Origin: Chiloscyllium plagiosum
Taxonomy: Eukaryota
Assembly (NCBI RefSeq): GCF_004010195.1
Contig: NC_057718.1
Location: 43,399,970 to 43,463,969 of the forward strand
Length of the DNA: 64,000 bases
Direction of reading: 5' to 3'
In this document: piece after piece, positions 12,428 through 59,210 of the stretch
Numbering within the stretch: the stretch's first letter is position 1
Layout: each line of letters opens with the position of its first letter
Made by a program: the position numbers and the translations under genes
Notes under the pieces: generated by a model
Seen by the model: the letters and a program-made list of their open reading frames with translations, nothing else
What the model was told of the DNA's origin: nothing
Database searches by the model: none

Positions 12428-12494
12428 AGTGCAAGCCATATGGCGTTGCCGTGTAATCAGCTTACTGAGGGCTAAGGTCATGTGCGAATGTTGG
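12428..12494 (+). pseudogene. Candidate exon
   Basis: ttcgttttgcag| ... GG|gtaagg; open frame VQAIWRCRVISLLRAKVMCECW ending in phase 0. Confidence 0.4.
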
Positions 12495-14064
12495 GTAAGG
12501 AAAAAAAACTAGATGGACTTGATTATATGGTTTAGTTGATTGCTTGAGAAATATTTAATGGAAATCAACATTGTGTTGGTGTTAACTTGAATTTACTTGT
12601 GAGAAAGTAAGTGTGTTAATCGAAGTTATGTACTTTACAATTAGCACTCTAATGATTATACTCGACCTTCAGTTTATCTTGTCAAAAATCATATTTTTGA
12701 ATTCAGGCACTATATGTAATTTCAATTTCTGCAAATAGTTTCAAATAATATAGTGCAAAACTTTACAACTAAATTAAGTTTGTAAAGAAAATATTGAACT
12801 TTTTTCAGAGAAATAAAATATTTTATTCCATTCTTCTGTAGATTGGACTTCGAATTACAATTTGAACTGAAAATCCCAATATTTTACTAATAAAAGGAAA
12901 ATTGCATCCTCGTGGGAATAGTGTCTAATTTAGGATACAACTAAAGTTCTAAACTTTACAGTGCACTAAATCTTGAAGCTCTGATCAATAAAGATGACAT
13001 CTTCAGTATGCTCACTATCAAACATTTAAATTCAATTTATTGAGAAGATACATTTTCTCTCAAGGATGACCTTTTGGTTACCAAGCATTGTGTTGCATTG
13101 ATATTTCAAATAATTGAAGTAACTTTATTGGTATGTTACATTTTGCTAAGATTTGTCAATTCATTGGGTTATTTTCCAAGTTTGGAAAGCATAGCAACAC
13201 ACAGAAGTTTATTGACTGTGCCATCTGAAGCCACATGTGGTTTGCCAGTTAGAAACACTCTGTCTTAGCATAACTGCTGTGGAAAGCATATTGCCCTGTA
13301 ACCAGCAATTCTACGTTCAAGAGTGCCCTCATAGAAATTCTTTCAATGCTGATCTTGTACCTGGATCCTTAGACACTTGTGGCACTTAGGACAATTATGA
13401 TTTGAGACCAGGCTCTTCAAGGAATGCCACCAGTTTTATATTTTGGAATCAAACAGAATGTTATACTACACCTCCTCTTCAAAATCTTGGATTTGGAAGT
13501 TCATTTACCTTAACAGTACTGTTGCAACCTCACCTCGAGGATGTAATGTAAGTAATGCAACAGGTGCTGGCTCAGAGCTTCTTCAAAATAATTGAAGAAT
13601 TTAAGAAAAATGTCATGCCATATTCACACAAAATATGTTATAATTCACAACATTATGTTGGCTAGCAAGTTATTATAAATATTTTGCAGTTATACCTGTA
13701 GAAGTAGGATATTTGATTGCAGGCCCTATATTATTGTTACATCAGGTATAATCAGGTAGATGCACCTGCACATCATCTGTAGTTTACTAAAGTTCCCACA
13801 TCCAAGTTGGAAAATATTCTGATGCCCTTTCATTAAAATCAAAGCTACAATTGGCAGGAAAGCATTTAACAAATCATAAATGATCGATTAGAAATTACAG
13901 TAATGTACTTGAATGAATAATTGTAGCTTTCTGTATTTTTTGATGCCGTGCAATTTTGCATTATCTATATATTATCAGGATAATTTTAGGTTTGTTACAG
14001 TCCATTTTGATTTTTATTTTATTCCCTCACTTCCATTCATGATGATTCTTTATATGGATTACAG

Positions 14065-14156
14065 GTAACTTTGCTATTACGGGGTAGTTGCATTCTTGTG
14101 TGGTCTTGCGCTGTACAAAAAATGCTCTATACAAATATACTTAAAGTGTTGGCGAC
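14065..14156 (+). pseudogene. Candidate exon
   Basis: ttacag| ... AC|gtaagc; phase-0 open frame VTLLLRGSCILVWSCAVQKMLYTNILKVLA, compatible in phase with the previous segment. Confidence 0.45.
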
Positions 14157-14182
14157 GTAAGCGCATTATAGCTAACACACAC

Positions 14183-14292
14183 TTATACCCAAAGTGTTGA
14201 TTCTCCTGCTCCTCGGATGCTGCCTGACTTGCTGTGCTTCTCCAGCACCACACTTTTTGACTCTTCAGCATCTGCAATCCTCACTTTCTCCT
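14183..14292 (+). mobile_element. Penelope-type terminal fragment (family A)
   Basis: ...ttctcctgctcctcggatgctgcctgac...cagcatctgcaatcctcactttctcct; same family as 42901 and 57986. Confidence 0.85.
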
Positions 14293-19470: not shown

Positions 19471-19948
19471 AGTCTGCTATAATTTCTAATCCATTAGGAC
19501 TGGATTATGTTGTGCAATTCACTCATCTTTTTGAGTAAACAGGGAGATGGAAGGTAAAAAGGAACTGTTAAGGGGCATCTTTTATCTTTTCTAAAGATTT
19601 TTCATTCTTATTTTTCTGTACTCTTTCCTTATTTTTTGGAAGTTTTATATCTACGGTGATGAAAACACATTCATTACATGATGCTGCACTTCCTTGCTAT
19701 TTTAAGGGTGTTACATATCTGATCTTCAAAGAAGTTATCATTACAATGTATACTGAAGTTGGCATAGCTAAGATAGATATATATCCTCAACTCCATATAT
19801 TGGTTCTGTAAAATAATTGAGTTTGATGGCATACATTGCAACCAGTGCATTGACTGTAAATGTGCTCTCACAATGTTATAACCAGTAAGACTATTTGCTG
19901 CTAAAGACACAAATTTTATAGTTTTCATATTTTCATCTCAACTATCAG

Positions 19949-20210
19949 ATTTGGTTGCATGATAGCTGTCATATTAGTAAATAAAGTTTTTTTGTGATAT
20001 TGCTTCTCGCACTAATATCCTGGCAATGACGTTTAACAATGACATACATGAAATATTTCACATGATTTATTGAGACTCACACATTTCTATCGCAGCCATT
20101 TCCATTCTGTCTGCGTATGATGCCTGATTGTCAATTTGGAACTTATTGTCCATGATAACACGTTGACTTTGTGTTGAGTCCTTCTGATTCCCAAGATGTG
20201 GCCTTTCGGT
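19949..20210 (+). pseudogene. Candidate decayed exon
   Basis: ttttcatctcaactatcag|; DLVA**LSY**IKFFCDIASRTNILAMTFNNDIHEIF and later SILSAYDA*LSIWNLLS (WD40 D..L.IWN). The 3' boundary is uncertain. Confidence 0.45.
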
Positions 20211-20899
20211 AGATGGTGCTGTATTCTATTGAGTCTTGTATCTGAAAATGAGTGAAATTCTCATTTTCAACTACCATTCTGCCCAAAATATTACTTTTAA
20301 TTTGTTTTTAATATATTCTTTACATTCTTTCTTATATATGTATTTCTTTCAAGTTAAAACATTGTTGATGCCATGATGGAGCATGCACCAAGGGTATTCG
20401 TAGCTACTTGGGAGTAAATTAGGCAATGCAGGTAGACATTTTGAGAGACCAATACTGAGAGAGGGAGAAAGTATAAGAGAAGTAATTGTGTAAAATAAAA
20501 TGTACACATAGAGAACATGAGAGAGAAAAAAATGATCATAAGGCAATTAGAGCCGAAGGCACTATCAGTACATCTTTCAGGGAGTAATGATATTTGGGGC
20601 AGAAATCCCACCCTGTTCTCTCTAGAGCTGCTAACCTATGATTGGCCAGCAGCTTTCATTGCAGCAAGTGCCATTGTGCAATTCACCCATCAGTTGTCTA
20701 GAATCAATGAGGATCCAAAGGCAAAAGCATTTGAATGTGGGAGTGTAGTGTACCGGTGTACTGGGTGGTGTTGGTTGAGGTTGGGGATGTAGGGGTGTGG
20801 TGGCTGGTGGTGACAGAGATTATTAAAGTCTCAAACTGTTGAAAATGAATGCAGCTTGGATGTCTCTAAAGTGACTAATTGCAAAATGAGGCCCTCTTC

Positions 20900-21035
20900 C
20901 TTCAAGATGTTTGGGGCCATGTATATGGATTGACTGCAGCTAATTCTCCGTCTTCCACTCATGCTGACATCTTTGTCCAGTGAAGCTTAACATACGCTCT
21001 ACGATGGATCTCTGGGAATTGTGCAGCTCTAGCAA
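20900..21035 (+). pseudogene. Candidate decayed exon
   Basis: DVWGHVYGLTAANSPSSTHADIFVQ*SLTYA, then a frameshift to DGSLGI (WD40 GH...T ... DGSL.I). Boundaries uncertain. Confidence 0.4.
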
Positions 21036-21529
21036 ATTCCTTTTTTCTTATTCTTAAACGTGCTGTCCTACAATCTATCTTCAATGACAACTGGACCTAC
21101 TTGGAAGGTCCCAGATAGAGACTTAAACCAACTAGCTCCAACTTTAAACCTATTATTTGATCTGGAAAGTATATTGATGAATTTAAGATCTTGCTTGTTT
21201 ACTGGTTACTGTCAAGTTGTTTGATCTGGGACTCACACAAACAATTTAAAGCTTTTTTTTCTGAATTTTTGGGAAGATGAATTAGAGGTGTTTTCCCATT
21301 GTCAACTTTGATTTGATTAACTAAACCTCAGGGCACCCTTTCATTTGCATTTACTTCAACAGCTTCTCATCACGGGTTTACATATCTTACATTTAAGTTT
21401 CAATCCTATTAAAAGTTTTACTCCTTAGAAAGATCAATCATAAAATTAAACATTTTTGCAATACTTGGTGAGTGCACCAAGTTTATCTCAAACATCACCA
21501 TTTAGAATTTTCATGACCTTTTAAAATTA

Positions 21530-22870
21530 AATCTACTTTTCTATTTTGTTACTGAATTGAGTAACCTCAAATTTCCTCGCATTATGCTTTTATTTATTGC
21601 CTTGATAACCACTCACTTAATCTGCCTTTATCTCTTTGCAGCCTCTTTGTGTCCACCTCAATGTTTACATTGCCACCTTTCTTCCTATCAGCAGTAATTT
21701 TGGATACCTTACTTTCTGTCCTCTATTTTAAGTATAATTAACATATCGTGAATAGTTGGAATTCAAGCACCAATCCTTGCAGCACTGCATCAGTTACAGC
21801 CTGACAACCTGAAAACAAACCTCTTATCCCTAACCTCTGCTTTCTGTCCATTAATCAGTTTCCATATATCCTAATATAGCACTCAAAACTCTGAGTGTGC
21901 TAACATTTTATAATGTACCTTACTAATTTCTTTTGAAAATCCAAGTATACTTCCTTTACTGGCACAATTTTATCAACCTTACTGGTTATGAACTCAGTTT
22001 TAATGGAGTTTTATACTTCCCTTTCCTAAACTCCCATTGAACTCTGTCTTATTGTGCCATGATGTTATGATACATTTCTTTGACTTCCTAAACAATGGAT
22101 TCAGCATTTTCCTGATGACTTGTCTGTTTGACTGGGCTATAATATTTTGTTTTCTTGCTTCTAGTTTCACCATCAACTGTGTTATATTTGCAAGCTGCCA
22201 AGCAGCTTGGACCGTTCCAGAGTCCTGGAAGTTTGGAAAATAATATATCCACTACATCTGTAGGTATCCCTTTTAGAATTCTGGGCTTTTATCTCTCCAG
22301 TCTGCAGGCACCCTGCCTCTATTCCTGATGAAGGGCTTTTGCCTGAAATGTCGATTTTCCTGCTCCTCGGATGCTGCCTGACCTGTTGTGCTTTTCCAGC
22401 ACCACTCTAATCTAGACTCTGGTTTCCAGCATCTGCAGTTTTTACCTTGTAGACTATCAGGTCTTCGAAATTTGTCAACTTTAGGTTCAGCTTTGTCCTT
22501 AAGTTTGTATAATACTTTTTCTTCTTCTGACATTAATTCTTTAAATTCCTCAATCTTGGTTACAATGTAATTTGGATGGTGATGTATGCTTCTTTTGTTA
22601 AAAAATTACTCATGAGATGTGGGCATCGCTGGCTGGACCAGCATTTATTTACCATTCCTGTTTCCCTTGAGAAAGTGGTGGTGAGCTGCCCTCTTGAACT
22701 GCTGTGGTAGATCCTCAATGCCATTTCTATAATGAAGACAGACACAAAATATTTGTTCAACTTCTCTTACATTTCTTCAATCCCTGTGATACGTTCCCCT
22801 GTCTCAATTTCTAAGGGATCAAAGTTTAGTGCTGCTATTTCCCTCCGTGTACCTGCCTTCTTTTTCATAT
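21530..22870 (-). mobile_element. Old CR1 ORF2 fragments, interrupted by younger insertions
   Basis: Minus strand LNKYFVSVF and degenerate RT segments. Confidence 0.65.
22279..22450 (+). mobile_element. Penelope-type terminal element (family A) with hammerhead motif at 22321-22356
   Basis: attc-CTGATGA-a-gggc-tttt-gcct-GAAA-tg-TC-gatt followed by the family A body and tail. Confidence 0.85.
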
Positions 22871-22946
22871 ATTTTTAAAAGTCCTAGCAATCTTTTTCAA
22901 ATTTCAAATTTTTGGTCATATTTTGACAACTTCTAATATTTTGCAG

Positions 22947-23096
22947 ATTTTCCAATGGCCAGATACATTTTCTGATGCAGAGATGGAAATTGCAAATGGG
23001 ACCTGGCAGAACTCCATTGTAGCAAACCTGAAAGGAGTAGCCTGGGAAACTGAAGAATCCGCTGGGCAGTTCCCCTACTCCTGGAACCTTCTGAAA
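22947..23096 (+). pseudogene. Candidate exon (150 nt)
   Basis: aatattttgcag| ... AAA|gtatcc. One frame is open (IFQWPDTFSDAEMEIANG...); another begins FSNGQIHFL and joins DAEMEI with a single indel. Confidence 0.45.
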
Positions 23097-23174
23097 GTAT
23101 CCATTTAAATCAAAGAATCTGGGGAGTTTTGCTGCAGTTAAGTAAACAGACTGCTGTCTTAACATATTGTAGAA

Positions 23175-23350
23175 CTGCTAGCTCATTAGAGAATGATAAT
23201 TGATGTTGGTTTAACCAGAGGATCACCATACCTGAGATGAGGGGAGAGCTTGAGAAGGAGAGTCCTTCTTGGAAACCTCAGCTGGTGCAGGAATTGAACA
23301 AACAATTGGCATCACTCTGCAGTGCAAACCAGCTGAGCTAACTGACTCCC
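23175..23350 (-). mobile_element. tRNA-derived SINE of a second family
   Basis: Minus strand GTTAGCTCAGCTGG (A box) ... GTTCAATTCC (B box), followed by a body unlike the V-SINE. Confidence 0.65.
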
Positions 23351-24149
23351 TTTGTTAAGTAAATTGTTACAAAGGACAAGGTAAACTATTAAAAACCTTG
23401 TCTAACTCCTGTACAAACAATAAACTGCCTCCCAACTTTACACACTTTACCTCACAAACCCAGACTACACCCACACCTCCCCCCACCCCGAGTCTGACAC
23501 GAAACTTCATTTCCACCTCTGGAATTGTCACCCCCCGCCCCATTGCTACCTGTCAGTCGATGGTCCTGACCCCCAGTCCCAATCTGACAATCCTCCTGCC
23601 AACCCTCATATCTACCACAAAGCCCAACCTACTGTAAATACTCTGTCACCTGCCTAGCCCAATTGCTTTCTTCTCCCCGGTATCCCAGTTATCCAGCACC
23701 CTACCCTCCTGACATCCACATCTCATAGTTGCCATATATACTGATCATTTCACAGCGGGTGTCAAAGTATGTGATGTTGTACCTTTACAATTTAGCAGAC
23801 AACAACTGACTTCAATGAGAAAGTTGCTGTGGTTTGCCTATTCCTGCCTGCTTTCCTCTGTTGGGGACCTGACAGAATTGAAGTATAGCTCTGTATTTCG
23901 GAAAGGTCCCTGATTGGAATGTCCTGTCAGAAATGCTCTTTAGTTGCATAAAAAAAAGAGTTTAAAGTTGTATGAGATTGCTATAATTTGTAAAATCTGG
24001 CTCTTTTATTTTTAAAATCCAGCTTTGTCCTTAACTTCCCTCAGGGATATCTATTTCTTGCTGACTTTTTTTGTTTCAATAAAATATATATTTTTGATCA
24101 TGCATTTTATATTTCTTTTAATTTCCCTCTGTTTATTTATAACCATGTC

Positions 24150-27100
24150 TCTTAATCTATTTACTCAAACCACATTAACCAGCTCTCTTGTCATACTTAT
24201 GTAATTGAATTTGTTTAAATTTAAGTTTTGGTTTGAACTCAAGTATGTTGTTCTGAAATGTAATATGGGACTAATTTGCATTATAATCACTTTTTCCCAG
24301 AGGATCTTTTCTATGAGATTATATATTAATCCTGCCTCATTAAACAATACTAGATCAAAGATAGCTTTATCCCTAGGTGGTTCCACAATGTGTTTTTTTT
24401 CAGAAAACTGTTATGAAAGTATCTACAGACTCATCTTCCTTTCTGATCAGGGCTCCTGCTGTTCTGCTTGTATATTTGAAATGTGTATCCTGGAATATTT
24501 ATTTCCTAACCCTGGTCACCTTGCAAATGTATCACTGTTATTAGAACTGAATCAATTTTCTCTTTGCACTGTTAACTCATTTATCTTATTAAAAAGTTTC
24601 ATTTTATTTTTATTGTTTTTTAAATTTGATTTAATTTTACCACTGTTCTTCTGCAAGGTCAATATTCTCCAATGCCTTATTACTATTAATCCCTACCTCT
24701 TCCTGGCTCATTCTGCTTGCTTTAGTCCAAATGTTCTACTGCCTTAACTTTCGTCTTCAGTTTTCACACATCCATTAGCTACCCCTTGATCTCCCCACCA
24801 ACTCCCCCAAACCTTATACACTATGTTTAGCCATCTACTCTGCAGTTCTTTTTCTCATCTGCATGAACAACAAATAGTTCTTAGATAGTGAGCAAACACA
24901 GGAGCTACGGATCCTCCTCACTATAACCTGGACTTACATATCTGCCTGAATCACAGTAACGTTTTCATGTCTTTGACCACAACCAAATTCAAAACACTAT
25001 TTAACTTAAGGAGTGTGACTGCCTCCTAGAACAAAGTATTGAAGTCTACATTAAGCTTCATCTTTTCCAGTGATGTCAAGGAGCATTGTGTGGGATGATC
25101 AGCAGGTTGGTTCTGGATTTTGAAGGGGACAGTTGTGCCATCTGTGTCTTTCAATATTCTTAATAACAATGCCTAACTAGCCAATGTTACTTGTACCTAT
25201 TTGCTATCATTGCAATAAGCTACATCTTGTGAAACCTCACTAGTTCCTCTATTGCTGTAATCCAAATTGGCCCTTAGACCCAGTCAAGGAAAGATGAACA
25301 GTGGCAGCTTCCTTCTATCAGATTAACTGGACTGTTGTAACCTGGCCTATCCCTGCTACCCTTCCTGAACGAAAGAACTGCTTTAGCTATTCTCCAGTCA
25401 CCTGGGCCTTCACCTTGGCCAGTGAAGAATTAAATATGTTCACTAGTGCCCCTAAATCTCCACCCCTGTCTTCCATAGCACCATGGCCGATAACCTCCTC
25501 ATCCAAACAGGCTACAATGTCTTGCTCCTCTGTGAACTTGGATGCGATATATTCATTTAAGACCTCACCATGACCACTGACCCCACATACAGGTTGCCCC
25601 TTTGGTCTCTAATAGGCCCCACTCTTTTTGTGGTAATTCTTTTACTGCTAATGTATCGTAAAATGCCTTGGGGGTTTTCCTTAATCGTATATGCCAAGGA
25701 TATGTCATGGCCTCTCTTTCCCCTCCTAACTTATTTCTTATACATCCCTTCTATACTCTCTATACTTTTGAAGGATCTCCCTTGTTTTAATGCACTGTAC
25801 CCATCACAAGCTTCATTATTTTTCTTTATCAAACTCTAAACATCCAGGACTTGTTGCCCTTGCCCTTCACTCTTAGCGGAACACTTTAGCCCTGAATTCT
25901 CACTATACTCACTTTAAAAGACTGCCCACTTTCCAAATGTAGACTGAACTGCAAGGAGCAGCTCCCAGTTTATGTTTGCCGGATAATGATATTGTAATGG
26001 TATTGAAATTGGCCTTCCCCTAGTTTAGACACTTAACTGCTGCACTACACTTGTCCCTTTCGATTATGACTTTGAAACTTACAGAGTATAGCCACTATCC
26101 CCAAAATGCTTACCCACTGATACTTCAACTGCTTGACTGGCTTCATTCCCTAGGATTAGGTCTAGCACTGCCCCTTCTACTAGGTCTACCTATGTTCTGG
26201 CACAAAAAGCTGCCCTGGGTGGACTTTAAAACTTTCACATCAAATCCTTTCACACAAAGGCGATCCCAGTTAGAGTTAGCAAATTTGAACTTTCCTACAA
26301 CTATAACCCTTTCACACCTTTCTGTGATTTGCCTGCATATCTGCTTCTCTGTCTCCCATTGACTGTTGGCCTGCCAGTAATATATTCCCAGTAAAATAAT
26401 TGTCCCTTTTTCTAAGCTCAGTCCAGTTGGCCTCATTTGACGAGCCTTCTGGAGCAACCACCGTCATTACTGTAGTGATGGTTTCCTTTATCAATGATGC
26501 AATGTCACCACCTCTGTTCCATCCCCCACATCACAACTGAAACTTCTAAACTCTGGGTAGTTAGCACTGCTGGCTCACGGCGACAGGGACCCAGATTCAA
26601 TTCCAGCCTCGGACGACTGTCTGTGTGGAATTTGTACATTCTCTCTGTGTCTGTGTGGGTTTCTTCTGAGTGCTCTGGTTTTGTCCCACAGTCTGAAGAT
26701 GTACAGGTTCGGTGGAATGGCCATGCTAAATTGCCCATAATGTCTTGGGATGTGTGTGTTAGCCAGGGAAATTTAGGATTTTGGGAATAGGGGAGGGGGG
26801 GGAGTGGGTTTGGGTGGGGTGCCTTTTGGAGGGTCAGTGAGACTCGATGGGCCAAATGGCCTGCTTCCACAATGTAGGGATTCTGTGATGAGCTGCCAGT
26901 CCTGACATTCCTTCAACCACATCTGAGTGATTGCAAAAATATCATATTTCTATGTGCTGATCAATATTCTGAGTTGTTAAGTTCTTAAGCCTTACCAAGT
27001 CCTTCCATTAAAATATATGCAGTTTAACTTCCTGGGCCTCCCATGTACCTTGTCATTCCCATGTTTTCTACACTTGCTGGACTGTGCTCATATTCCCTTC

Positions 27101-44655: not shown

Positions 44656-44720
44656 CCATCACTGCAGTAATGCCCATCATGATGAAGTAACTGAACAAGT
44701 ATATTACTTTCTATTACATT
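44656..44720 (+). pseudogene. Candidate decayed exon start
   Basis: Strong acceptor ctctccctctttcag|; HHCSNAHHDEVTEQVYY (WD40 AH..VT). The 3' end is unclear. Confidence 0.3.
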
Positions 44721-45404: not shown

Positions 45405-45924
45405 GTAAGTATCATAAACTATTGTACAGGTCAGTCTGTATCTGTAAAAAGACAAATTGGTGCATTTGAGATTTCACTGTTTTTTCAGCTTAACATATTT
45501 TGTCTGAGGAGCTTTTTGTTTCTTATTCTGATTTAAAGTTTTCACACATTTTCCTTTATTATGCACATGTTAGTTACTTTGAGGATCCTTGTGGAAATCG
45601 CATGAATGTGAAATGCATGTATTTTCTTAAGTTTAGAAGGTTGCGATGTGAAGTAATTTAAAAGTATTTAAATGTTAACAAAATTTAATAGAATAGACAC
45701 AGATACTCCCCCTTGTGAAAAGATCTAGAAAAAAGGGGACATTGATCTTAAATTTGGTCTGGATCATTTTGGAATGAAAAAGCAAAACATTTTTACACAC
45801 CAAAGGTAGCAGAAATCTGGATCTGTCTCCCCAAAAATCCTTAGCTCCTTAGTCAAATCATATTTTTAAGCCTTTATTCAATATACTTTTGCTGACTGCA
45901 ATCAATGGTTCAGCTCCTCTTACT

Positions 45925-46600
45925 TTTTAAAATTCATACATGGAACTTGAGCATGGTTGGCTGGGACAGCATTGATTTACTTGCTCTTCAGAAGTTGGTG
46001 ATGAGCTGTTTTCTTGAATCACAGTAGTTCAGTTTGTGTAGGTTTACCACTATGTTGTTAGGGAGGAAGTTATCGAATTTTGATCCAGTGCCAGTGAAGG
46101 GAGGGTGGTATTTTCCCAAGTCAAGATCATAGAATCTCTATTGTGCAGAAAGAGGCCACTTGGCCGAGCGAGTCTGCACCTGCCCTCCTCAGACCATCCC
46201 ACCATAACCCTGTCCCCATAATCTTGCATTTGCCATGGCTAGTGCACCTAACCTGCACATCCCTGAACACTGTGGGACAATTTATCATGGCCAATTCATA
46301 TAACCTGCACGTCTTTGGACCATGGAGGGGAAACCAAAGGACTGGCAGAAACTCATGCAAACTCCAAACACACAGTCACCCAAGGCTGGAATTGAACTTG
46401 GGTCCCTTGTGCGGTGAGGCAGCAATGCTAACCATTGTGCCACCAAGATGATGACCAGCTTGGAGGGGAGTTGCAAAATGTTCTGCTGCCCTTGTCCTTC
46501 TAAATAATAGCAGTGATGTATTTTGAAGGTATTGTCTAAGAACCTTTGATAAATATCTGCAGTACATTGTCTGTGGCATTCACTATTGCTACTGTGCTCT
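45925..46600 (-). mobile_element. LINE 3' end (same family as 52860) interrupted by a SINE
   Basis: ..gaag.tggtg.tgagctg..ttcttgaa.. terminus shared with 22610, 52860, 54830 and 55280. Confidence 0.7.
46127..46445 (-). mobile_element. HE1-like V-SINE
   Basis: Minus strand GGTGGCACAATGGTTAGC..GTTCAATTCC head, partly deleted core, CR1-like tail. Confidence 0.9.
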
Positions 46601-48552
46601 TCAAATCTAATCAGGCAATAGCATAATAACGTTCTACACAGAATCACATCTTTCAGCAAACATCATGGACTCCTCCAGTATTATCTAAGCAAGGAAGATA
46701 GAAATATTTCAGTGAGTGTGCAGTAACCAATTTAGTTGATGTAACTGACTTCGTTGAATACGCATATTCAATGCGTGCAAGATTTGTGATGATGCTGTGA
46801 GGCCTGTGTTAGTGCAAAGTCAATGAAGACAAGATGAAGCTATAAATGTAATGTCGCTGTATAATTTATAGAGATTGTAAGTAGCTGAGTGATGGGGGTG
46901 TGGTGCATGGAGCAGTGCATGTGGCAAATAGAGCAGTTGCTTGAATATGATATTCTAAAATAAATTCACTGACTTTAACCACTTCTGTAAGTCATGTTAC
47001 CCTCTTGCATTATTGCATCCAGGTCTTTGGGGCTTGATTCCTGTTGTGCTCCTATAATCTGTGAAACAATTGTCTGGAGTGTCCGTTGGATACAGAACCT
47101 CACTGCTGCTTTCTTCCTCCTGCATTGTTGTATCATGGGGCGCACTTACTGATCTGTTGCACCACATTTCAGTGTTCTTCTTTTTTATCCTCTCTGCTGT
47201 AATCTGATCAGTATCTGTTCCAGCCAATGTGACCTCCACTTTAAGGTATGTGGGGTAGTTTTAAGCAGTGCATGCTATCTCAAAGTGATGCTGACATTAC
47301 GAAAAATTGAGATTGATGCTGGGCCATGCAGCCACTCAGCAACACACTTAATGTGGGATATCATGAAAATTAGCAGTCAAAATGAAATTTAATGCTATCT
47401 TTATTAGAAGCAGTGACTGGAGGTTAATTGTTGGTTATAATATCCCTAAACATTTTCAATCTTTTTAAACTTTGCAGCCTGTGACCTCATTGTTCCCAAT
47501 ATGATCCTACATCAGTACAGCCATACAGTAGCATGCATATCATTTTAAGCTTGTTTTCTTTATTTGTAAAATGATTCAATCAGTGATCTGAATGAGTATT
47601 CAAGTCAGATAGGAAAACATATGGATTTTCCCTCTAAAGATCCCACGGTGCCTGGGGAAAATGGCCGTTCCGTGAATCAAGAGGAAAAAAGCTACACAGA
47701 TAAGAAATTTTGTGAGGAGTGGCTCCTTTAATCACAGGCTGGGTCCCTTCTTCACTTGTAGCTGATAGGGTCACAACAGAACCCAGCCTGTGATTGAAGG
47801 AGCAATGAGAAGGTGAGGTAGGGTGCTGAGCAGGATTAGCAACACATAGAGGAATCACATGTCAGCCCGTGAGGCAGGACTGGGTGGGGTTGGGGAAAAT
47901 ATGGGATTGCCAGGGCTGGGGGATGTTTGACCCTGACAGCTGAGATCAAGTGGAGAGGGCAAGAGGAACATGACGTTCCCTGACTTAGGCTTGTGAAAGG
48001 ACGCTTTGGGGTTAGAGGCGGTTTGAAGAAAGTAGAAAAGAAGTAAGTCCGTAGAAAGGATGGGAGGGAGAGGTGCATGGCTGGAAAGGGGACTTAGAGT
48101 ATATGTTGGTTGCTGCAAAGAGGAGAAGATAAGATGTTTTCAGTGGAGAGAAGGAGGGAGGTTGCCAAAGGAAGCAATTAGATTTGAACATCTCAGCAAA
48201 GGGAGAGTGATGATCATTGAGGATGTTGCCAAATTCTTCTAATTCCACATCTGCATGAGTCCAAATACCCCAAATGTCAACAAAAATACAGAGGATAATA
48301 TTACAATGTGATTGCACCAGGAATTGGTAGAAATGAAAAAAAATCTACAAAATTCAATAAGTACCTCTCAAGAGATCTCAAGCAAATTCCTCAGAAAAAA
48401 AACCACATTGACCCCTGGTCTGAACATAAACGTATGTTAAAATTTCAGCAATGATTCAAACGTCATTTGAAAGTAATCAAAATGATTTTGGATCCTGGCT
48501 TTTTTCTTACCTCGGACTCATATGTGGGGAATGCTTTTTTTCATTTCATCAG

Positions 48553-48736
48553 ATATTGAAACAATATAACTTTGCTATAGATGAGATGCACACAAAAGAA
48601 AGGTAGTTGAAATCCTGTATGCACAAGGGTAACATGGAATGAATTATGCTTCGGGGTTGAAAAACTGCAAGAAGCCCTATTAAAATCTGAATTATCATAT
48701 CAGTAACTGGGAAATGTGAAATATTCACCAGCCCAG
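48553..48736 (+). pseudogene. Candidate decayed exon (184 nt)
   Basis: ttttttcatttcatcag| ... CAG|gtaaaa; (D)IETI*LCYR*DAHKRKVVEILYAQG*HGMNYASG...HISNWEM* gives a WD40-shaped repeat with 5 stops. Confidence 0.5.
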
Positions 48737-49998
48737 GTAAAAACGTCTTCATAAAATGTTTGATTCTCACAGATCCTTCTTGAATGGGTTGATATACCTT
48801 TTTTCATACAGTGCATGTTATAAATAAAAAATCCCGTAAATCTCTCAAGAGCAAAGTCTGTCTTTTTCAATTTATCAAACATGTTTGATGATGTCATATA
48901 TGATTATTCAATGAACTAACTTTTTTGTTGGAAAAATACATGGAATTGCAGTTTTGAAGCAATGTTATCATAATGAGAGTGAGTGTATTCAGCATAGCTG
49001 CTTTTCCTTCAGATAAAGGCAGATTGTTGATTCTTCATGCCATGTTGCTTTGAATGTTGCTATGGTGATAATTGCAGTTTGGATCTTATTCTGTAACTTG
49101 CAAAAGGTCATTAATCTGCTAGAAAGCAATTGTCCCTCAATCATATACAATTCTGACATCCAGATCCCTGTTTCCATGCTAATTGTTTGAAGTTCATTTG
49201 TTGCACAAATCTCTTTAATGACTTTTCACAAAACCTATTTTGACAGAAATTTAATAAAAGAAATATTATGTGTGGATCACTATAAAAGCTGCGATTTGGA
49301 TGAATCAAGAAAGATTGCTCACTAAAAGAGGCATTGCTAACCTGTTATAGTAAAATAGTTATAGTGTTTCAAGCATTCCTTATCTTTAGACAATTTTAAT
49401 CGTGTTCATTTGTTTAGGGTGTTGCTTTGCCTAGCCTTGAGATTTGTACAGTTGAATGAGAAGCCGGTTGGTATCACAAATGAATAGATGTTCAACTTAG
49501 TTTGTGCTTAAAACAACATAGCACTTTTAATTCATGTACAGTTCTAACCTGCTTTTGAAGCATCCGAAAAGAGGCAGGGGTATCCTTTATCTTTATCAAC
49601 AATCCTTGGTTGGACAATTATTTTATTTCTTCCCAAACTTTCACAAAACGTGACCCTATTCAGATGCTTTAAACTTTGTGACCCCAGAGGGAAAATTGGG
49701 CAGAGAAGAATGAGATAACATTTGAGTTGTTGTGAGGAGTTGTTGAGTAAGGTTTGAGGGTAGCTGACACCATATATTGTTGAGTCTTAGAGGTGGTGGT
49801 AAATTTGAGTTTGACATAAAGTGTTTTCTAACTTTTCTTAGGTTGGGAACTGAGGCACATCGCTGAGAGGCCAGTGTACATTGCTCATTGTTTTTCATCC
49901 CTCAAAAGCTATTGTCTCAGCAGCATCTGCAGTTGAGATGCTCTGCATTTTACAGTTGAGTGCATAGAAATCTTGGCTAGAACTTGCCAGGATTGGAG

Positions 49999-50146
49999 TG
50001 ATGCTGGAAAAGCATAGCTAGTCAGGCAGCATCCGAGGAGCAGGAAAATCAACGTTTCGGGCAAAAGCCCTTCATCTCTCCACCTTGGAGGCTCTCTGCC
50101 TCTAACCTTGACTCTGATCTCCAGCATCTGCAGTCCTCATTTTTGT
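49999..50146. mobile_element. Family A element (inverted arrangement) with 16-bp TSD
   Basis: TSD cttgccaggattggag at 49983-49998 and 50147-50162; minus strand GATGAAGGGCTTTTGCCCGAAACGTTGATT. Confidence 0.9.
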
Positions 50147-50534
50147 CTTGCCAGGATTGGAGCATGTGTGACTGAGTCACATGCGACACTCTTTCAAGTG
50201 AGAAGCGTCTGAATGTTTGAGGGATCCATGCAGATGGAATTATCAATGCCAATAGCCTGAAGCCTTTTTCTTTCTTGGTACCAGGGGTCTCAGGTCTGTA
50301 GGAAGTGTTTGAATTTGGTGACACTTCCATAGTGCATTTATTGAGAGGGAAATCAAAAGATCTTGCAGGGATTTGCACTCTGGCAGCAACTAAAAAGCAG
50401 TGAGGATCTCAATTGCCTCGTTGGCTCAGCACTCCATCACCCTGGCATCTGCAACTGGAGCAGCACCTTACATCACCTCAGGGCCTTCTGGTTGTTCGCT
50501 GTCATTACTGTCCGATTGTATCATTGTGTTGTAG

Positions 50535-50653
50535 AGTTTTGCTGATTGTGGGAAATCAATGGCACTCCTATGGACAAAGTCATTGTAATGCGATCTGGAC
50601 AGATCCAACAAATTACCTACATGCTACAGAGACGCGTAGCTTCACCTCTTATT
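50535..50653 (+). pseudogene. Candidate exon (119 nt)
   Basis: tcattgtgttgtag| ... ATT|gtaagc; FC*LWEINGTPMDKVIVMRSGQIQQITYMLQRRVASPLI. An alternative frame (VLLIVGNQW...) is open. Confidence 0.5.
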
Positions 50654-50954
50654 GTAAGCTGTTAAATTATTATTACAAAGAAGGGATATGTTGTATATGT
50701 ATCCTGCCTTGAAGGATACATATACCTTTAACGAATCCACGCACAATGTTGTTTGTCTGCTATGTGTGCACATGGAAATTAGTTGATTTGCTGAAATATA
50801 TGATTCATAAGCATATAACATTTTTTTCCTATTTTAAATAAACTAACCCAAAAAGTTAATCAATTTCTGATGAGTTATTGGTTATTTGACTATTATCGTT
50901 AATATACCATCCAGGCTTGGTTCCCTCGATAGTACATTAAGATCTTGTGGTGTC

Positions 50955-51130
50955 AGCTACAGCAATGTTGGTAATACTTTTGTCTCGAAGTCAGAAGCTT
51001 ACTGGTTTAAGACCTTTTCTAGAGACTTAACCACACAAATGTATGCTGCCACTGCATTAAAGTACAGAGGAAATGTTTAACTGCCACTATTATAACTTCT
51101 ATGTTTTGGATGATGTCGTGACCAAGTGAG
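50955..51130 (+). mobile_element. Old Deu-domain SINE 5' part; probable 3' part at 52575-52770
   Basis: tRNA-like head ..gaagtcagaag..ggtttaag..agagactt..; the downstream piece has caatcaacatc..cagattat..ttggctgcc..cctgagg. Confidence 0.55.
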
Positions 51131-51374
51131 GAGGAAGAACTACTCCCCTCTTTCAGAACCTCTCTTGATCAGTCACAACATTTGTTTTCTTTCTGTTTAG
51201 CATGGAGCAATCGTACTTTAATTAAAATTGCGAGAAAATGAAGGTTGTTCATACAATTAGTTTTTTTCACTGAATGCAGCATTCTGAAATGTTGAGAAAA
51301 AGAGGCAGAGGCCAAAGTTATTTTTCCTTCTGTCTGGCTCTGTTGCTCAAAATTAGCTGTTAAAATAGAGTTCT

Positions 51375-52365
51375 AACCCAGCTCATCTCTAAACTCCAAG
51401 ACCTACAACTCTGCTCCCCCTTCTGCAACTGGATCCTTGACTTCCTGACTGCAATCAGGAAGGATAGGTGACAACACCTCCTCCACAATGATCCTCAACT
51501 CCAGTGCCCTGCAAGGCTGTATACTCAGCCCTTTACTGTATTTCTTATACACTCAAAACTGTGTGGCTGATTTTCAGTTCTAATTCCATTTACAAATTTG
51601 ATGACACTACCATGGTGGGTTGGATCTCAAACAATGAGATCCAACTACAAAAAGGAGATAGACAGCTTAGTGGTATGGTATAGACAATAATCTCTCCCCC
51701 AATATCAGCAAAATAAAGTTGCTGGTCATGATTCAGGAAGCAGAGTGGGAACACACCCCTGAGTATCAATGGTGCTGAGGTGCAGGTGGTTGACAGCTTC
51801 AAGTTCCTAGGAGTAAATACCATCAACAATCTGTCCTGGTCCATCATGTTCATGCTGCAGTCAAGAAAACATACTACTGCCTCTACTTCCTCAGAACACT
51901 AAGGAAATTCATCATGTCCACAATGACTCTTATCAATTTTTATAAGTGCACCATAGAAGGCATTGTGTCCGGATACATCACAGCTTGATATGGCAATTGC
52001 TCTGTCCAAGATCACAAGAAATTACGGAGATCAGTGAACACAGCCTAATCTATCATGAAAAACAGCCTTCCTTCCATTGAGTCTGGACAAAAATCACACA
52101 ACACCAGGTTATAGTCCAACAGGTTTATTTGGAAGTACTAGCTTTCAGAGCACTGCTCCTTCATCAGGGAACTAGTCCAGTAATCAGTTACCTGATGAAG
52201 GAGCAGTGCTCTGAAAGCTAGCACTTCCAAATAAACTTGTTGGACCATAACCTGGTATTGTGCGATTTTATATTTAATCTAAGGTATGATTAGCACACAA
52301 AACAATATTTTTCACTATCTCTTGGTACATGTGACAATACTAAATCAAATCAAATCAAATCAAAA
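51375..52365 (+). mobile_element. Rex1/Babar-type LINE RT fragment with (AAATC)n tail
   Basis: CNWILDFLT, QGCILSPLLYFLYT, KF.DTTMVG.I, SFKFLGV, FYKCTIE. Confidence 0.85.
52085..52270. mobile_element. Fold-back Penelope terminus (family B), hammerhead motif on each strand
   Basis: Arms at ~52090-52168 and 52191-52269; CTGATGA-A-GGAGC-AGT-GCTCT-GAAA-GC-TA. Confidence 0.9.
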
Positions 52366-52859
52366 ATAGTTCAGTGTGTATTCCAGAATCTAGCTCCATT
52401 GTTTTTCCAAGTTTGCTCACTGGCTGGTGTGTCATTCACATCCCAATTTGTAAAGTTATCAAACGCCAGTGAATGAAACAGGAAATGCAATTTTTTAAAT
52501 GTAGATTCAGTTGCCTGGTGTTTTCACAGATTGATATAAAAAGATTGTATATTACTGTTTTGAAGAAACATGTGAGGTGTCATGGTCACTACTTGTCTCT
52601 CAATCAACATCAAAAATACTGGCAGATTATTTGCTCCTGATCATGGGACCAAGTGTCTCCCAGTTGGCTGCCCCATTTTCTACATCACAATGTCAACTCC
52701 ACTTTTGGATGTAATGTGTTTTCAGTCATCCTGAGGATACATTGGAGATTAGATAAATACATTTCATTTTCTGAAGACAGTTTCACATAATTGCAGAAAT
52801 TAAATAAGAAAGCTGCTGTGCATGGTGCCAACAAAAGCCAAGCTTCTGAGTCTTTTAAA

Positions 52860-54540
52860 AATTAATCAGTGGACTCTGGGCATCGTTGGTTGAGCCAATA
52901 CTTATTGTTCACCCCTTTTTGCCCTTGAGAAGGTGGTGGTGAACTGTCTTCTTGAACTGCTGCATTCCGTTTAATGTAAGTGGACCCACTTTTCCATCAG
53001 GAAGGGATTTAATGAATTTGGACCCAGTGTACTGAAGGAATGCCAGCATATTTCCAAGTCTGGATAGTGAGTGGCTGGAGGAGAACAGTCGGGTTATTGT
53101 GTTCCTACGTATTGCTGCCCTTGTCCTCGTGGATGAAAGTAGTCATGGGTTTGGGAGGTGTTGATTAAGAAACCTAGGGGAATTCCTGCAGTGCACTTTG
53201 TCAATACTATACACTGCTGCTACTAAGCTTTTGTGATGGAGAAACTGAATATTTGTGGATATGATGCCAGTCAAGATATTTATTAAGCTTCTTGTTTATT
53301 GTTGGAGCAGAACTCATCCAGGCAAAAAGGAAGTGGTCCATCACATTCCTGACTTGTACCTTATTGATGGTGGATGGACTTTGTGGAGTTGAGGGTTGAG
53401 TTGATTGCTACAAAATTCCTACCCTCTAACCTGCTCTTGCAGTCACAGTATTTATATCGAATCGAATTAAGTTTCTGGTCAATGGGAACCCCCAGAATGT
53501 CAATAGTGGTGGATTAAGTGATGGTGATACCACTGAATATCAAAGGGTGATAGTTAGATTCTCTTGCTTGAGATGGTTGTTGCTTGGCATGAATATTATC
53601 TGCTACTTCCCAGACCAAACCTGAATATTTGGCTGCAAATTGTTTCAGTACTTGAAGAATCATGAATGGTGCTGAAAGTTGTGCAGTCATCCCCACTTCT
53701 GACCTTAAAATGGAGAGAAGCTCATTGATGAAACAGCTGAAGATGGTTGAGCCTAGGACACTACACTGAGGAACTCCTGCAGAGATGGCCTGGAGCTGAG
53801 ATGGCTGATCTCCAACAACCACAACCTTGCTAGATGACACATTTGGTTAAATGCAGCCTTGATGTCAAGTGCTGTCACACTCACCTTATCTCTGGAATTC
53901 AGCTCTTTTGTTCATGTTGAACCACAGTTGTAATGACGTCAAGAGCTGAGTGATCCAGGTTTAAATCTAAACTAAGCATCATAGCAGGCTCTCACTAAGC
54001 AACAGTTACTTGATAGCACTCTTGAACACCTTCCATCACTTTCCTGATGAATGAGAGTAGACTGACAGGATGGTAATAGGTTGGACTTGGTTTTTCTTAC
54101 TCTTTGCGTACAGGACATACCTGCTCAACTTTTGACATTGTTGTGTAGATGCTACTGTCGTAGCTGTGCTGGAACAATTTGGTTAGGGGCAGGTTATGGG
54201 AGGGTTTGGAGCACAAATCTTCAGTGGTATGCTGCAACATTGTTAGGGTCCATTGCAGAATTCACAGCCTCCATTATTCCTTGATATCACATTGGAATGA
54301 ATTGATTTGGTTGCAGACCGGCATCTGTATTGCTGGGGACCTCTGGAGGAGACAGTGAAGAATCATCCACTCAGCACCTAACTGAAGATTATTGAAATAT
54401 TTCCTTTATATTGTGTGCTGGCTGATGGGAATGTTTGTGGATCCTCCTTTTTCAGTAAGTGGTTTAATTGTCCATCATTTTAATGACGAGACGTTATAGG
54501 ATAGCAAAGCTGAGGCATGATTGTTTCAATGTAAAATCAT
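52860..54540 (-). mobile_element. CR1/L2-superclade LINE, RT to 3' end
   Basis: LDIKAAF, GVPQCSVLGSTIFSCFINEL. Confidence 0.85.
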
Positions 54541-54566
54541 TAGTCCAATCTTTCACTTACTTATAA

Positions 54567-54702
54567 ATTGCTGTTGATGCTCCATGTAACTGATTTTGGA
54601 GATTCTGGGAAGTGTCTGGGAACAAGTTGCCTGCTCTGAGGATGAAAGTGAGTGGAGGATCATTCGCAATTTATTCAGATGTTTGGATTTACAAAAAAAA
54701 AA
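54567..54702 (+). pseudogene. Candidate decayed exon
   Basis: Pyrimidine tract ending AA instead of AG; donor A|gtgagt; FWRFWEVSGNKLPALRMKVSGGSFAIYSDVWIYKK. Confidence 0.4.
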
Positions 54703-55800: not shown

Positions 55801-55974
55801 ATAAGAGACAATCAAGTTGCTTGTAAGCCTGGACTCCAATATGGATCAGCCCAGGAAAGAAACACAATAAATTAAAAGCATTTTTACACAACATAGCCAC
55901 CATTAATGACCCTTACTTTTAATCCCAGATGTTTTTAATTTATTCATTTATGTTGGGTAGAGTTAATGAACAGC

Positions 55975-58705
55975 AAAGGAAAGAAGACCCTGAAGGGAGT
56001 TTCGTGGCCTCCTAGCAATAGTTAGGATGTGGGACAGAAAATAAATTAGGAGATAAAAAGGTATGCAAGAAAGGTACAATTACAATAATCATGAGGGACT
56101 TCAATATGCAAGTGGAAAGGGAAAATTTGGTTGTTAATGGATCCCAAGGAAACATGGAATGTCTGTGAAATGGATTTGATGTGGCTTGAGTTAGAGCTCA
56201 TTAGGGAACAGGCAATTCTGGATTTGACAAGGCAGATTTGATTATGAAGCTTAAGGTGAAGGAACCCCTGGGGACCAGTGACCACAATATGATAGAATTC
56301 AAACTGCAGTTTGAGAAGAAGTTTGAATCAAATGTTGCAGTATTACAATTGAGTAAAGGTAACTATAATGACATGAGGGAAAGGCTGACTAGAGTTGATT
56401 ATAAGTGGAGACTGTCAGAGAAGATGTTGTGCACCAGTGCTAAGAGTTTCTGGGGGTAACTTGTGAGGCTTAGCATAAATCCATAGCAAGGAAGAAGAAG
56501 CATACTAAGTGGAAAATGAGGCAACTGTGGCTGAAAAGGGAAGTTAGGGACAGCAGAAATACAAAAGAAAAAGCAGACAAAGTTGGTGAAGATAAGTGGG
56601 AAGCCAGAGGATTGGGAAGCCATTAGAAACTAACTAAGGAAAAGTAAAAAAGCAATAAGGGGGAGAATATAAAATATGAAGGTAAGCTAGCTCGTAATGT
56701 AATATTTTAAAATATATAAAATGTAAGAGAGAGGCAAAAGTGTACATTGGACCATGGGAACACGAGGCTGGAGAAGTAGTAATGGGGAATAAAGAAATGG
56801 CAAAGGAACTGAACAGGTTCTTTGCATTATTCTTCATGATGGATGTCAACAGTAGCATACCAGATCTTCAAGACAGTAAGGGGGAAGAGTTGAGCATAGT
56901 GGCCATCATTAAGGAGAAGGTGCTGGATATACTGAAAGGTCTGATGGTGGATAAATCTCCTCGACAAGATGGACTACACCGTGGGGTTTTGAAGGAGATA
57001 GCTAAGGAGATTTTGGGTCTATTGGAGGTGATGTTTCAGGAATTATGAAAGTCACTGAGGGTCTTGGAAAACTGGAAAAACAGTAATATACCACACCAAG
57101 AGAGTAATATACCACACCTGTTTAAAAAAGTGAGGGAGGCAGAAGATAGGAAATTGTAGACTGGTTAGCCTGGCCTGGATCTTTGGTTAGATTTTCAAAT
57201 TCATTGCTAAGGATTAGATTGCAAAGCACTTGGAGGTGTGTGGTAAAACAGGGCTGAGTCAGCATGAATATACAAGGCAAGGTCATGCCTGACAACTATA
57301 TTTGAATTTCTTAAGGAGATAACAAGCAAATTAGACAAGGAGAACTAGTGGACGTGATCCATTCAGGTTTCCAGAAGGCCTTTGACAAGATGCTGCACAT
57401 GAAAGAGCTCAATAAGACAAGACCCCATGGTGTTAGGGGCACAGTGCAGGCATGGCTGACTGGCTGACTGGCAGAAGGTAAAGAGTGGGCAATAAAGCGT
57501 TTTTTTCAGGATGGCGTCTGTTGACTAATGGAATTTCACAAGGGTCAGTGTTGGGACTACAACAATCCATGTTAAATACTAATGATCTAGATCAAGGAAC
57601 TGAGGGCATTGCTACTTCATTTGCAGATGATACAAAGATAGGTGGAGGGGCTAGTGGTGTGGGGGAAGCAGGGAGGCTGCAGAAGGAGTTGGAAAGGCTA
57701 GGAGACTGGCAAAGAAGTTGCAGATGGAATATAGTTTGGGAAAGTGTGAGACTATGCATTTCGGTAGAAGCATAGACACGCAGACTATTTTCTAAATGTT
57801 GAAAGGCTTTGGCTATCTGAAGCGCAAAGCAACTTAGGAGATCTGGTTCAGAATTCCCTTAAGGTTAACATGCAAGTTCAGTTGGCAATTAGGAAGGTGA
57901 ATGCAAAATTAGCATTCATTTCAAGAGGGCTAGGGCAGGCATATACTGCTGGGGTTGTGTAAGTCTCTTGTCAGACTGTAATTGTAGGAGAAAGTGAGGT
58001 CTGCAGATGCTGGAGATCAGAGCTGAAAATGTGTTGCTGGAAAAGCGCAGCAGGTCAGGCAGCATCCAGGGAACAGGAGAATCGACGTTTCGGGCATAAG
58101 CCCTTCTTCATGGATGCTGCCTGACCTGCTGCGCTTTTCCAGCAACACATTTTCAGACTGTTATTGTAATATTGTGAGCAGTTTTGGGTACTGTATCTAA
58201 GGAAGAATGGGCTGGCGTTGGAGCAGTTCTAGAGGACGTTTATAAGAATGATCCCAGGAATGAAGGGCTTGTCAACTGAGGGTGGTGGTTGAGGACTGTG
58301 GGGTCAGTACTCAATGGAGTCTAGAAGGATGAGAGGGAATCGCATTGAAACTTAGAACACTGAGAAACCTGGATAGAGTGGATGTGGAAAGGTGTTTCCA
58401 TAGGTAGGAGAGACTGGGACCTGAGAGCACTGTCTCAGTATGAAGGGGTGACCCTTTGGAACTAAGATGGGGAGGAATGTCTTCAGCCAGAGGGTGGTGA
58501 ATCTGTAGAACTCATTACCGCAGAGGTTTGCGGATACCAATTCATTGAGTATATTTAAGACAGGTTTTTGATTAATAAGGGGATCAAGAATTATGAGGCA
58601 GAAAGCAGGAAAATGGGGTTGAGAAACATATCAGCCATGCTTGAATGATGGAGCAGACTCATTGGGCCAAATGGCCTAATTCAGCTCCTATATCTTTTGG
58701 CCTTA
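55975..58705 (+). mobile_element. CR1 LINE ORF2 (endonuclease end to 3' UTR), degenerate
   Basis: EPLGTSDHNMIEF, DKSP..DGLH..VLKE, FQKAFDK, QGSVLG, FADDTKIGG. Confidence 0.93.
57986..58156. mobile_element. Family A fold-back element in CR1, TSD of about 16 bp
   Basis: tcagactgtaattgta (57971-57986) / tcagactgttattgta (58153-58168); near-perfect inverted arms. Confidence 0.92.
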
Positions 58706-59115
58706 CTTAGAAATTTTTAATTCTCCAGTGCTATAGTTGCATTTATAATCATTAGGGATACAACTTTACATTTAAGAATATGTAGGGAGTTGGGTGGGTG
58801 CCTGGCAGGGGTATCGATTAATGGTTTAATGGTATGTGAGTAAAAATTTGTCGATTAGAAATACACAGTGATTTGGGTGTAAGTCCAACAGTCCAACAGG
58901 CTGGGTCAGGTAGGGATGGAGAATTTAACAGTAATATTGTGTCAGAGAATAATAGTAATAGAAGCATATAATTAAAAGCTCTTTGCCTAATTATGCAGAG
59001 CATTCAGAATTAAAAAGTCAAATAGTTAAATAGTTTAGATTTATTCCTCGAGACATGGTTACAAAGTGACTAAGTTTGGAAAGCAACATTCCACTAATTA
59101 CTTTTCCTTTTGTAT

Positions 59116-59210
59116 GGATGTCTAAGGTCTGTGTATCTGAGTGATGTTTGGATTCAGATGTCAATGCTGTGAATGGTGTTGATTTGCTCATTGCCATGTG
59201 CGGACCTTTG
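59116..59210 (+). pseudogene. Candidate decayed exon
   Basis: After cttttccttttgtat; CLRSVYLSDV, then a frameshift to NAVNGVDLLIAMCGP; splice dinucleotides are degenerate. Confidence 0.35.

Follow-up and report, generated by a model that had tools for sequence, protein, structure and literature searches.

A row of WD40-like segments in shark DNA as a probable old unprocessed pseudogene of the WDR87/WDR97 group

A row of short segments on the + strand of a 64,000-nucleotide stretch of Chiloscyllium plagiosum DNA (NC_057718.1, positions 43,399,970 to 43,463,969; hereafter the window) is probably an old unprocessed pseudogene of the WDR87/WDR97 group, with both its status as a gene and its family placement based on a putative likeness in motif order. 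One + strand multi-exon gene would once have encoded a large protein of several WD40 beta-propellers, and would make no protein now. Selection on it would have ended before this species split from its close relatives. Point mutations would have created stops and destroyed some splice sites (as at 20900, 54567 and 59116), small indels would have shifted the frame, and retroelements would have inserted into introns and into one or more exons (as at about 23040 and beyond). By analogy with its family and with mammalian WDR87, which acts with CFAP47, the ancestral protein may have served as a scaffold in the assembly of sperm flagella or motile cilia.

The layout of the row supports this reading: the motifs share a single orientation and a fixed order, their DNA is single-copy, and most are bounded by AG and GT sites that rank above average. 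All 15 of the motif strings searched for occur on the + strand, within the segments named in the original prediction or next to them. The same prediction held that most segments have a pyrimidine tract plus AG and/or a GT(A/G)AG-type donor; of the 13 starts, 10 are directly preceded by AG, and those at 20900, 54567 and 59116 are not. The candidate exons and neighbouring repeats are as follows, the 3′ end of candidate exon 3 (gtagat) being our own choice.

12428-12494, + strand: candidate fossil exon 1 (67 nt, between cag and gtaagg); 22 codons open in the frame from 12429, in a phase matching exon 2
14065-14156, + strand: candidate fossil exon 2 (92 nt, between cag and gtaagc); 30 codons open; ILVWS at 14092, VQKMLY at 14113
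about 14182-14292: short dispersed repeat 3′ of candidate exon 2
19949-20208, + strand: candidate fossil exon 3; NILAMTFNN at 20014, then SAYDA (20110), a stop and LSIWNL (20128); eight stops in frame 19948
20900-21221, + strand: candidate fossil exon 4, single-copy, no AG at its start; GHVYGLTA at 20915 in frame 20900, and DGSL at 21003 in a different frame (TLYDGSLGIV, frame 20901)
22947-23035, + strand: candidate fossil exon 5; FSNGQIHF at 22948; truncated by a multi-copy repeat from about 23040, its end approximate
23040-23330, no strand assigned: dispersed repeat, SINE-like by eye; depth data extend to 23200, and the right end is an approximation
32151-32262, + strand: extra candidate exon chosen by eye, absent from the original prediction (between ctcag and gtgaca); 37 open codons; HKVEHITAL at 32176
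32612-32684, + strand: candidate fossil exon 6 (73 nt, between tag and gtaaaa); SHQ(stop)W(stop)IRV at 32626
36286-36746, + strand: candidate fossil exon 7 (461 nt); LITGS at 36711; with 6, 15 and 14 stops in its three frames it would, if real, contain several frameshifts
44656-44698, + strand: candidate fossil exon 8 (43 nt), acceptor strong, donor weak; AHHDEVT at 44672
45300-45404, + strand: candidate fossil exon 9 (105 nt, between cag and gtaagt); two to three stops in every frame
47023-47245, + strand: extra candidate exon, absent from the original prediction (223 nt, between cag and gtatgt); one stop in 74 codons, phase agreeing with the open start of 48553
48553-48736, + strand: candidate fossil exon 10 (184 nt, between cag and gtaaaa); DAHKRKVVEILY at 48585, ISNWE at 48699; AHKRKVVEILY in frame 48552, IKI(stop)II at 48679 in frame 48553
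50535-50653, + strand: candidate fossil exon 11 (119 nt, between tag and gtaagc); LWEING at 50546, then an open frame
54567-54702, + strand: candidate fossil exon 12 (136 nt), taa in place of AG, donor gtgagt; RFWEVSG at 54600
58711-58909, + strand: extra candidate exon, the weakest of the extras (between tag and gtaggg); four to five stops per frame
59116-59220, + strand: candidate fossil exon 13, no AG; LDSDVNAV at 59148, DLLIAM at 59181
59220-59289: short repeat 3′ of candidate exon 13

The extra candidates at 32151 and 47023 had no database match, and no other gene was recognised within the window.

The stops in segment 19949 are genuine and mostly common to a related species. Other samples were compared over a 3.3 kb stretch (19880-23200) that covers 3 of the 13 segments. 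Contigs from X5, an independent Chiloscyllium plagiosum sample, are identical to the window over 19880-20193 and carry all eight stops of 19948-20208, with no other letters, which settles the question raised with the original prediction of whether these stops were assembly errors. A related species (organism B) shows no listed change at 7 of the 8 stops, has a 2-base insertion in this segment, and alters the residue with 7 of the 9 substitutions listed in its frame. A working, intact gene masked by assembly errors is hardly conceivable: the N gaps in the window (2082-2581 and 3930-4761) and the coverage of three segments leave it some room, but for segment 19949 it is refuted by the stops in both samples.

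Substitutions in organism B are about as dense in the segments (13/384) as between them (16/691; P=0.33, on small counts). Overall it differs from the window at 60 positions in about 2300 bases, and organism C at 99 in about 2430; both are close relatives. The DNA at 19880-23200 thus changes at a neutral rate, a result that non-coding junk would also give. Since the stops are real, the two best segments (19949 and 20900) are single-copy and the drift is neutral, the gene, if there was one, is dead.

The segments had been described as unique sequence. This holds for 11 of the 13, which have no base in within-window repeats (15,370 of 54,700 bases in total), but 14065 and 59116 each touch one, and segment 22947 as first delimited is not all unique. 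The bin at 22988-23098 has a depth of 180-314 against 19-34 in the preceding bin, a second copy of the repeat part of this segment differs at 15 of 102 bases, and the weak GT at 23097 belongs to the multi-copy repeat that starts at about 23040. That the segments are decayed transposon pieces draws on the same repeats, yet it is barely credible: three DNA runs cover 19880-21544 at a depth of 3-42, whereas the repeat at 22211-22765 reaches thousands to millions, and none of the segment readings matched a transposon family in Pfam, in which a control ORF at 63598 matched RVT_1. Rfam gave 0 matches.

A likeness to WD40 repeats was sought with several profile and sequence searches. None of 53 readings of chosen pieces (23 + 15 + 15) matched a WD40 or propeller family in Pfam at E values up to 1-10. 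Stray Pfam matches to Acetyltransf_4 (0.061), DUF4500 (0.088), Ribosomal_S4e (0.11) and KA1 (0.095) were set aside as chance. The PDB returned no WD40 chain, only unrelated matches at E 0.3-0.6. In the protein database 0/23, 0/2 and 0/1140 candidates scored (lengths up to 2000 residues in the first and third searches; one 41-residue region in the second), and phmmer gave 0 matches among representatives of 1.84 billion proteins, with a query in one frame across probable frameshifts. Both stop-free pieces submitted to the ESM Atlas (2/2) were without a usable match, and none of 373 stretches of metagenome contigs matched reading 19948. Metagenome matches for the extra candidate at 47024 (4 of 171) were also rejected; of the contigs examined (L007, L008 and L010), the match in L007 was discarded because its 14 residues fall in a closed frame that overlaps a long ORF of bacterial type; L008 and L010 have the identical sequence at this match.

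How much such blanks mean depends on divergence. Simulated with a six-piece profile, mock relatives at 55% identity scored a median of 50 bits and all passed (30/30), but at 45% identity the score fell to 26 bits and 22/30 passed. The blank search of 1140 candidates therefore disfavours a relative that is 55% identical or more and no longer than 2000 residues, if one was among the candidates. A WD40 profile of our own, built from 38 regular repeats on six viral contigs (40 rows less 2 that were not repeats), ranked no segment among its 30 best matches, and its 33 + strand matches at or above 0 bits all lie outside the 13 segments. These 33 compare with 12 on the - strand and 9-24 in 12 shuffles, but at -3 bits the counts are 165 and 163. 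The + strand excess is treated as noise, since it vanishes at the lower threshold, consists of matches 5-23 residues long and overlaps no segment. AlphaFold2, run on a single sequence (the 71-residue reading of 19948-20160), gave helices only (pLDDT 58, pTM 0.30), a model too poor for a fold search.

The beta-propeller motifs of the original prediction were therefore not recovered as repeats: no segment scores as one with Pfam or our profile, tools of low power on broken pieces. Nor did the Pfam, PDB, protein-database, phmmer or ESM Atlas searches place several segments collinearly on one protein. The row is accordingly not classed as a member of the WD40 beta-propeller family, no profile having matched at this low power.

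The main rival to the pseudogene is that there is no gene at all, only old non-coding DNA from which AG/GT-bounded, WD-looking pieces were picked by eye. There are 71 acceptor-like sites on the + strand and 85 on the -, and exon-like acceptor-donor pairs are as many on the - strand (22) as on the + strand (17), with no coherent gene among the 17 of 22 - strand pairs examined. WD-like patterns number 8 against 5 and 9 against 13 on the + and - strands. In 10 segments the frames with the fewest stops contain 18 in all, where random stretches contain 16.7 (P=0.69), and the best frame of segment 19949 has no fewer than random DNA (5 against 3.2). Phase fits over eight junctions gave P=0.61 and 0.49, and best-frame phases agree at 5 of 12 junctions. 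Ten AG sites scored at the 85th-99.5th percentile and ten GT sites at the 66th-99th, on rounded, textbook-style splice-site tables, with sites that had been chosen partly for that quality. The putative exon-intron structure shows 10 of 13 AG starts and high-ranking sites, but neither an excess over the - strand nor a phase signal. No spliced reads were seen among those examined over 19880-23200. Taken together, the splice, stop-density and phase statistics do not exceed chance, and they are weak measures for short broken pieces.

With every statistic at chance and every database search blank, and with neutral drift and shared stops being what junk DNA shows, the absence of a gene is a serious contender, although we consider it somewhat unlikely. 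The tests have low power on pieces of 20-70 residues with stops and frameshifts, as the drop at 45% identity illustrates, and a putative series of about eight motifs that keeps the order of a single protein would not easily arise by chance. What stands of the unprocessed pseudogene originally proposed is that, over 19880-23200, the stops are genuine and the drift neutral; a single WD40 gene with the segments as its exons found no support in the searches or the statistics. No RNA dataset covering 44500-52000 was listed, and over 19880-22210 the depth was zero in one single-cell RNA run from an unstated tissue (about 2/100 of the run), neither of which bears on testis or ciliated tissue.

The case for a pseudogene of the WDR87/WDR97 group comes from motif order. 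WDR87 and WDR97 are large proteins with N-terminal propellers. About eight window motifs (at 14113, 19981, 20014, 20110-20145, 20994, 32626, 36711 and 59148-59198) appear to occur in the same succession as in the N-terminal propellers of human WDR87, and those at 14113, 19981-20040 and 32626 presumably resemble WDR87 in particular. The original prediction named the same group, an agreement that is a lead and not a test. The row could instead derive from another WD40 family, such as WDR64, WDR49, the WDR95/EFCAB8 group or NWD, or consist of two adjacent fossils. LITGS, WNL, RFWE and AH..VV are generic blade words and the segments at 44656-54702 do not seem to fit the WDR87 order, but the putatively WDR87-specific motifs and the PDB searches that yielded no WD40 chain make this improbable.

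Within the wider group, human WDR87 lies at 19q13, a region paralogous to the USH2A region at 1q41. It is possible, though doubtful, that the row is the fossil of an unnamed vertebrate gene, either a duplicate that arose from WDR87 by whole-genome duplication or a third gene of the WDR87/WDR97 type. Such a gene would have died so early in shark history that databases hold no close intact copy, and would be legible still only through the slow change of shark DNA.

That an ancient member of the family existed in sharks is plausible, since a complex of WDR87 (Q6ZQQ6 in human; PMC13600778) and CFAP47 is described as acting in middle-piece flagellar assembly of sperm (PMC11506864) and a coral gene is annotated as WDR87 (bioRxiv 10.1101/2020.02.26.956680). 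PMC12297659 names WDR87 in a reference only, and the supplementary files searched for PMC10208646 give WDR49 once with a shark dN/dS, with WDR87, WDR97, WDR64 and KIAA1875 not found. Among the papers listed in literature searches, none addressed this locus or shark WDR87/WDR97.

If confirmed, the pseudogene would be a gene loss so far unannotated in sharks, and the lost gene may belong to a family of sperm-tail scaffolds that has been little studied. It could also help to date how long dead genes stay legible where genomes evolve slowly. That WD-repeat genes of sperm or cilia can be lost is already known, and no new mechanism is offered. Were the pieces the product of chance, the row would not be a real feature.

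Compared with the canonical WD40 repeat (PF00400; GH...WD units of about 40 residues), the window words ILVWS, LSIWNL, LITGS, RFWE and AH..VV resemble blade strands, whereas no segment scores as a repeat with Pfam or the profile of 38 repeats. With WDR87/WDR97 the row would share the order of about eight blade motifs; it differs in consisting of at least 13 short segments, broken throughout, and its middle segments (44656-54702) seem to have no clear counterpart in WDR87. No living orthologue was found for the row, so its decay may be older or its family harder to reach. In form it resembles human WDR95P, an unprocessed pseudogene of a cilia/sperm WD-repeat gene, which is likewise the remnant of a gene with introns, broken by stops and frameshifts and missing some splice sites.

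A row of 13 short segments on the + strand (starting at 12428, 14065, 19949, 20900, 22947, 32612, 36286, 44656, 45300, 48553, 50535, 54567 and 59116) is probably what is left of an ancestral multi-exon gene encoding a scaffold of several propellers. The gene would have lost selection before Chiloscyllium plagiosum (organism A) and a close relative (organism B) split, and then decayed. After selection ended, this + strand gene would have accumulated stops and indels, lost acceptors and taken in retroelement insertions. Under this likeliest history the locus is most likely now non-working.

Breaks, their sharing between organisms and neutral drift were observed in one stretch, 19880-23200, where reads of four runs covered three of the 13 segments. 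The original prediction had noted stops in most segments, and those of segment 19949 are genuine: contigs from X5, an independent sample of the same species taken from another study, have no other letters over 19880-20193 and one inserted T. All eight stops of the frame starting at 19948 therefore stand. Because the X5 contig over 20797-21219 is gapless, the shift of frame from GHVYGLTA to DGSL also stands. Depth across 19880-21544 was single-copy-like in all three DNA runs. That an intact gene is hidden by assembly errors is hardly credible.

Stop-by-stop comparison covered X5 and organism B, the figures for the latter resting on the 40 differences listed out of 199. Up to 21023 these look nearly complete, since the 29 of organism B found there amount to 2.5%, close to the 2.6% of its full contig (60 differences over about 2300 bases). 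Among the differences listed, one of the eight stops is TGG in organism B and seven are without change; of nine changes in frame 19948, seven are amino-acid replacements, and substitutions fall on 13 of 384 segment bases vs 16 of 691 between segments (P=0.33). The stretch 19880-23200 is evolving by neutral drift. In the roughly 2% examined of an RNA run from an unstated tissue, depth was zero over segments 19949 and 20900. The T run at 19981-19988 in candidate exon 3 varies, with one base added in X5, two (TG) in organism B after 19987, and no listed change in organism C, another close relative.

We infer the exon status, gene family and ancestral role of the segments. All 15 motif strings searched were found on the + strand where they had been described, and ten of the 13 segments start directly after AG. 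Scored with rounded textbook-style frequency tables, acceptors (n=10) reached the 85th-99.5th percentile among AG sites, and donors (n=10) the 66th-99th among GT sites. Three additional candidate exons (32151, 47023 and 58711), picked by score or by eye, had no match in databases.

The same segments may be chance picks out of junk DNA, which we consider unlikely but a serious competitor. Acceptor-like sites (71 on the + strand vs 85 on the -) and acceptor-donor pairs (17 vs 22) show no + strand excess. The best frames of ten named segments hold 18 stops vs 16.7 in random stretches (P=0.69), and phase fit over eight junctions gave P=0.61 and 0.49 (0.23 and 0.21 with 47023 included). A profile built from 38 regular WD40 repeats placed none of the 13 segments among its top 30. 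In the splice, stop-density, phase and WD40-profile tests the segments are no better than chance; this takes away support and does not refute a gene, because an old frameshifted pseudogene would fail too.

The window has 39% G+C and 1,332 N, and self-comparison found 15,370 of the 54,700 bases beyond 9300 repeated inside it. Its main repeats are:

2582-9297: satellite of 30-base units, in about 45 and 149 copies, with two N gaps close by
63598-63963: LINE remains, ORF matching RVT_1 (Pfam, E 2.5e-8)
9800-10270, 27850-31800, 37420-37880, 39760-41040 and 56650-57980: further LINE remains, by eye and self-similarity

That the segments are transposon pieces is very improbable. They had been described as unique sequence; 11 of 13 are without any base repeated within the window, and 14065 and 59116 each touch a repeat. 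Segment 22947 is not wholly unique: at about 23040 it passes into a multi-copy repeat, which rules out the donor at 23097 as a fossil one.

The satellite unit also occurs (87-92% identity) within two dispersed repeats, near 26618-26663 and 30311-30361, and the 6.7-kb array looks like an amplified internal unit of a short interspersed element. A short repeat at 22321-22439 is very high-copy, its depth reaching millions in three DNA runs, with many opposite-strand joints; it has copies at about 14182, 42900-43080, 50000 and 58000-58160, and takes nearly all RNA reads falling on 19880-23200. An old A+T-rich element is present as two inverted copies (24112-24438 vs 59682-59989, 63% identity), the first underlying a 180-codon open frame at 24205-24747. 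On the - strand, 33525-33721 is exon-like (197 nt between cag and gtaaga); one of its frames stays open through 65 codons, within a 154-codon ORF, and its sole Pfam match is stray (E 0.11).

Searches for a related protein were blank. A Pfam WD40 family was matched by none of 53 readings, and five PDB searches gave no WD40 chain. Since the WD40 profile test gave no match, we do not file the segments under the WD40 or WDR87 family. In the protein database, 0 of 23 candidates scored for segment 19949 (161-2000 residues) and 0 of 2 for segment 50535 (1057-3364 residues); a profile built from six pieces scored 0 of 1140 (126-2000 residues). Simulated relatives scored a median of 50 bits against that profile at 55% identity and only 26 at 45%, yet none was found, which makes a close relative unlikely if it has at most 2000 residues; the blank result is compatible with one that is longer or more diverged. 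Human WDR87 has about 2,900 residues and would fall outside two of these three length ranges. A phmmer query with 36288-36746, a reading that probably crosses frameshifts, had no matches among 1.84 billion proteins. The ESM Atlas (for the pieces searched) and metagenome contigs gave nothing informative, and single-sequence fold prediction was uninformative (pLDDT 58).

Motifs at 14113, 19981, 20014, 20110-20145, 20994, 32626, 36711 and 59148-59198 follow what we take to be the order of the WDR87 N-terminal propellers. We presume that frame 20901 fits WDR87 better than the GHVYGLTA frame first proposed, and that a blade more likely ends with IKI*II (48679) than with ISNWE. This presumed order keeps WDR87 alive as a reading; the original prediction named the same group, WDR87/WDR97, which is not independent evidence. 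Segments 44656-54702 have, on our assumed order, no clear counterpart, so the protein would have had more blades than WDR87, unless part of the assignment is in error. Membership of another WD40 family is improbable. It is also unlikely, though less so, that an unnamed whole-genome-duplication twin of WDR87, dead early in shark history, left this fossil.

The row probably records a gene loss, and one of an ordinary kind. The literature searched held no description of this locus. One article reports that a scaffold of the WDR87 kind joins CFAP47 in building the mammalian sperm middle piece (PMC11506864), and another annotates a coral gene as WDR87 (bioRxiv 10.1101/2020.02.26.956680). The row would be similar in kind to unprocessed pseudogenes of cilia or sperm WD-repeat genes.
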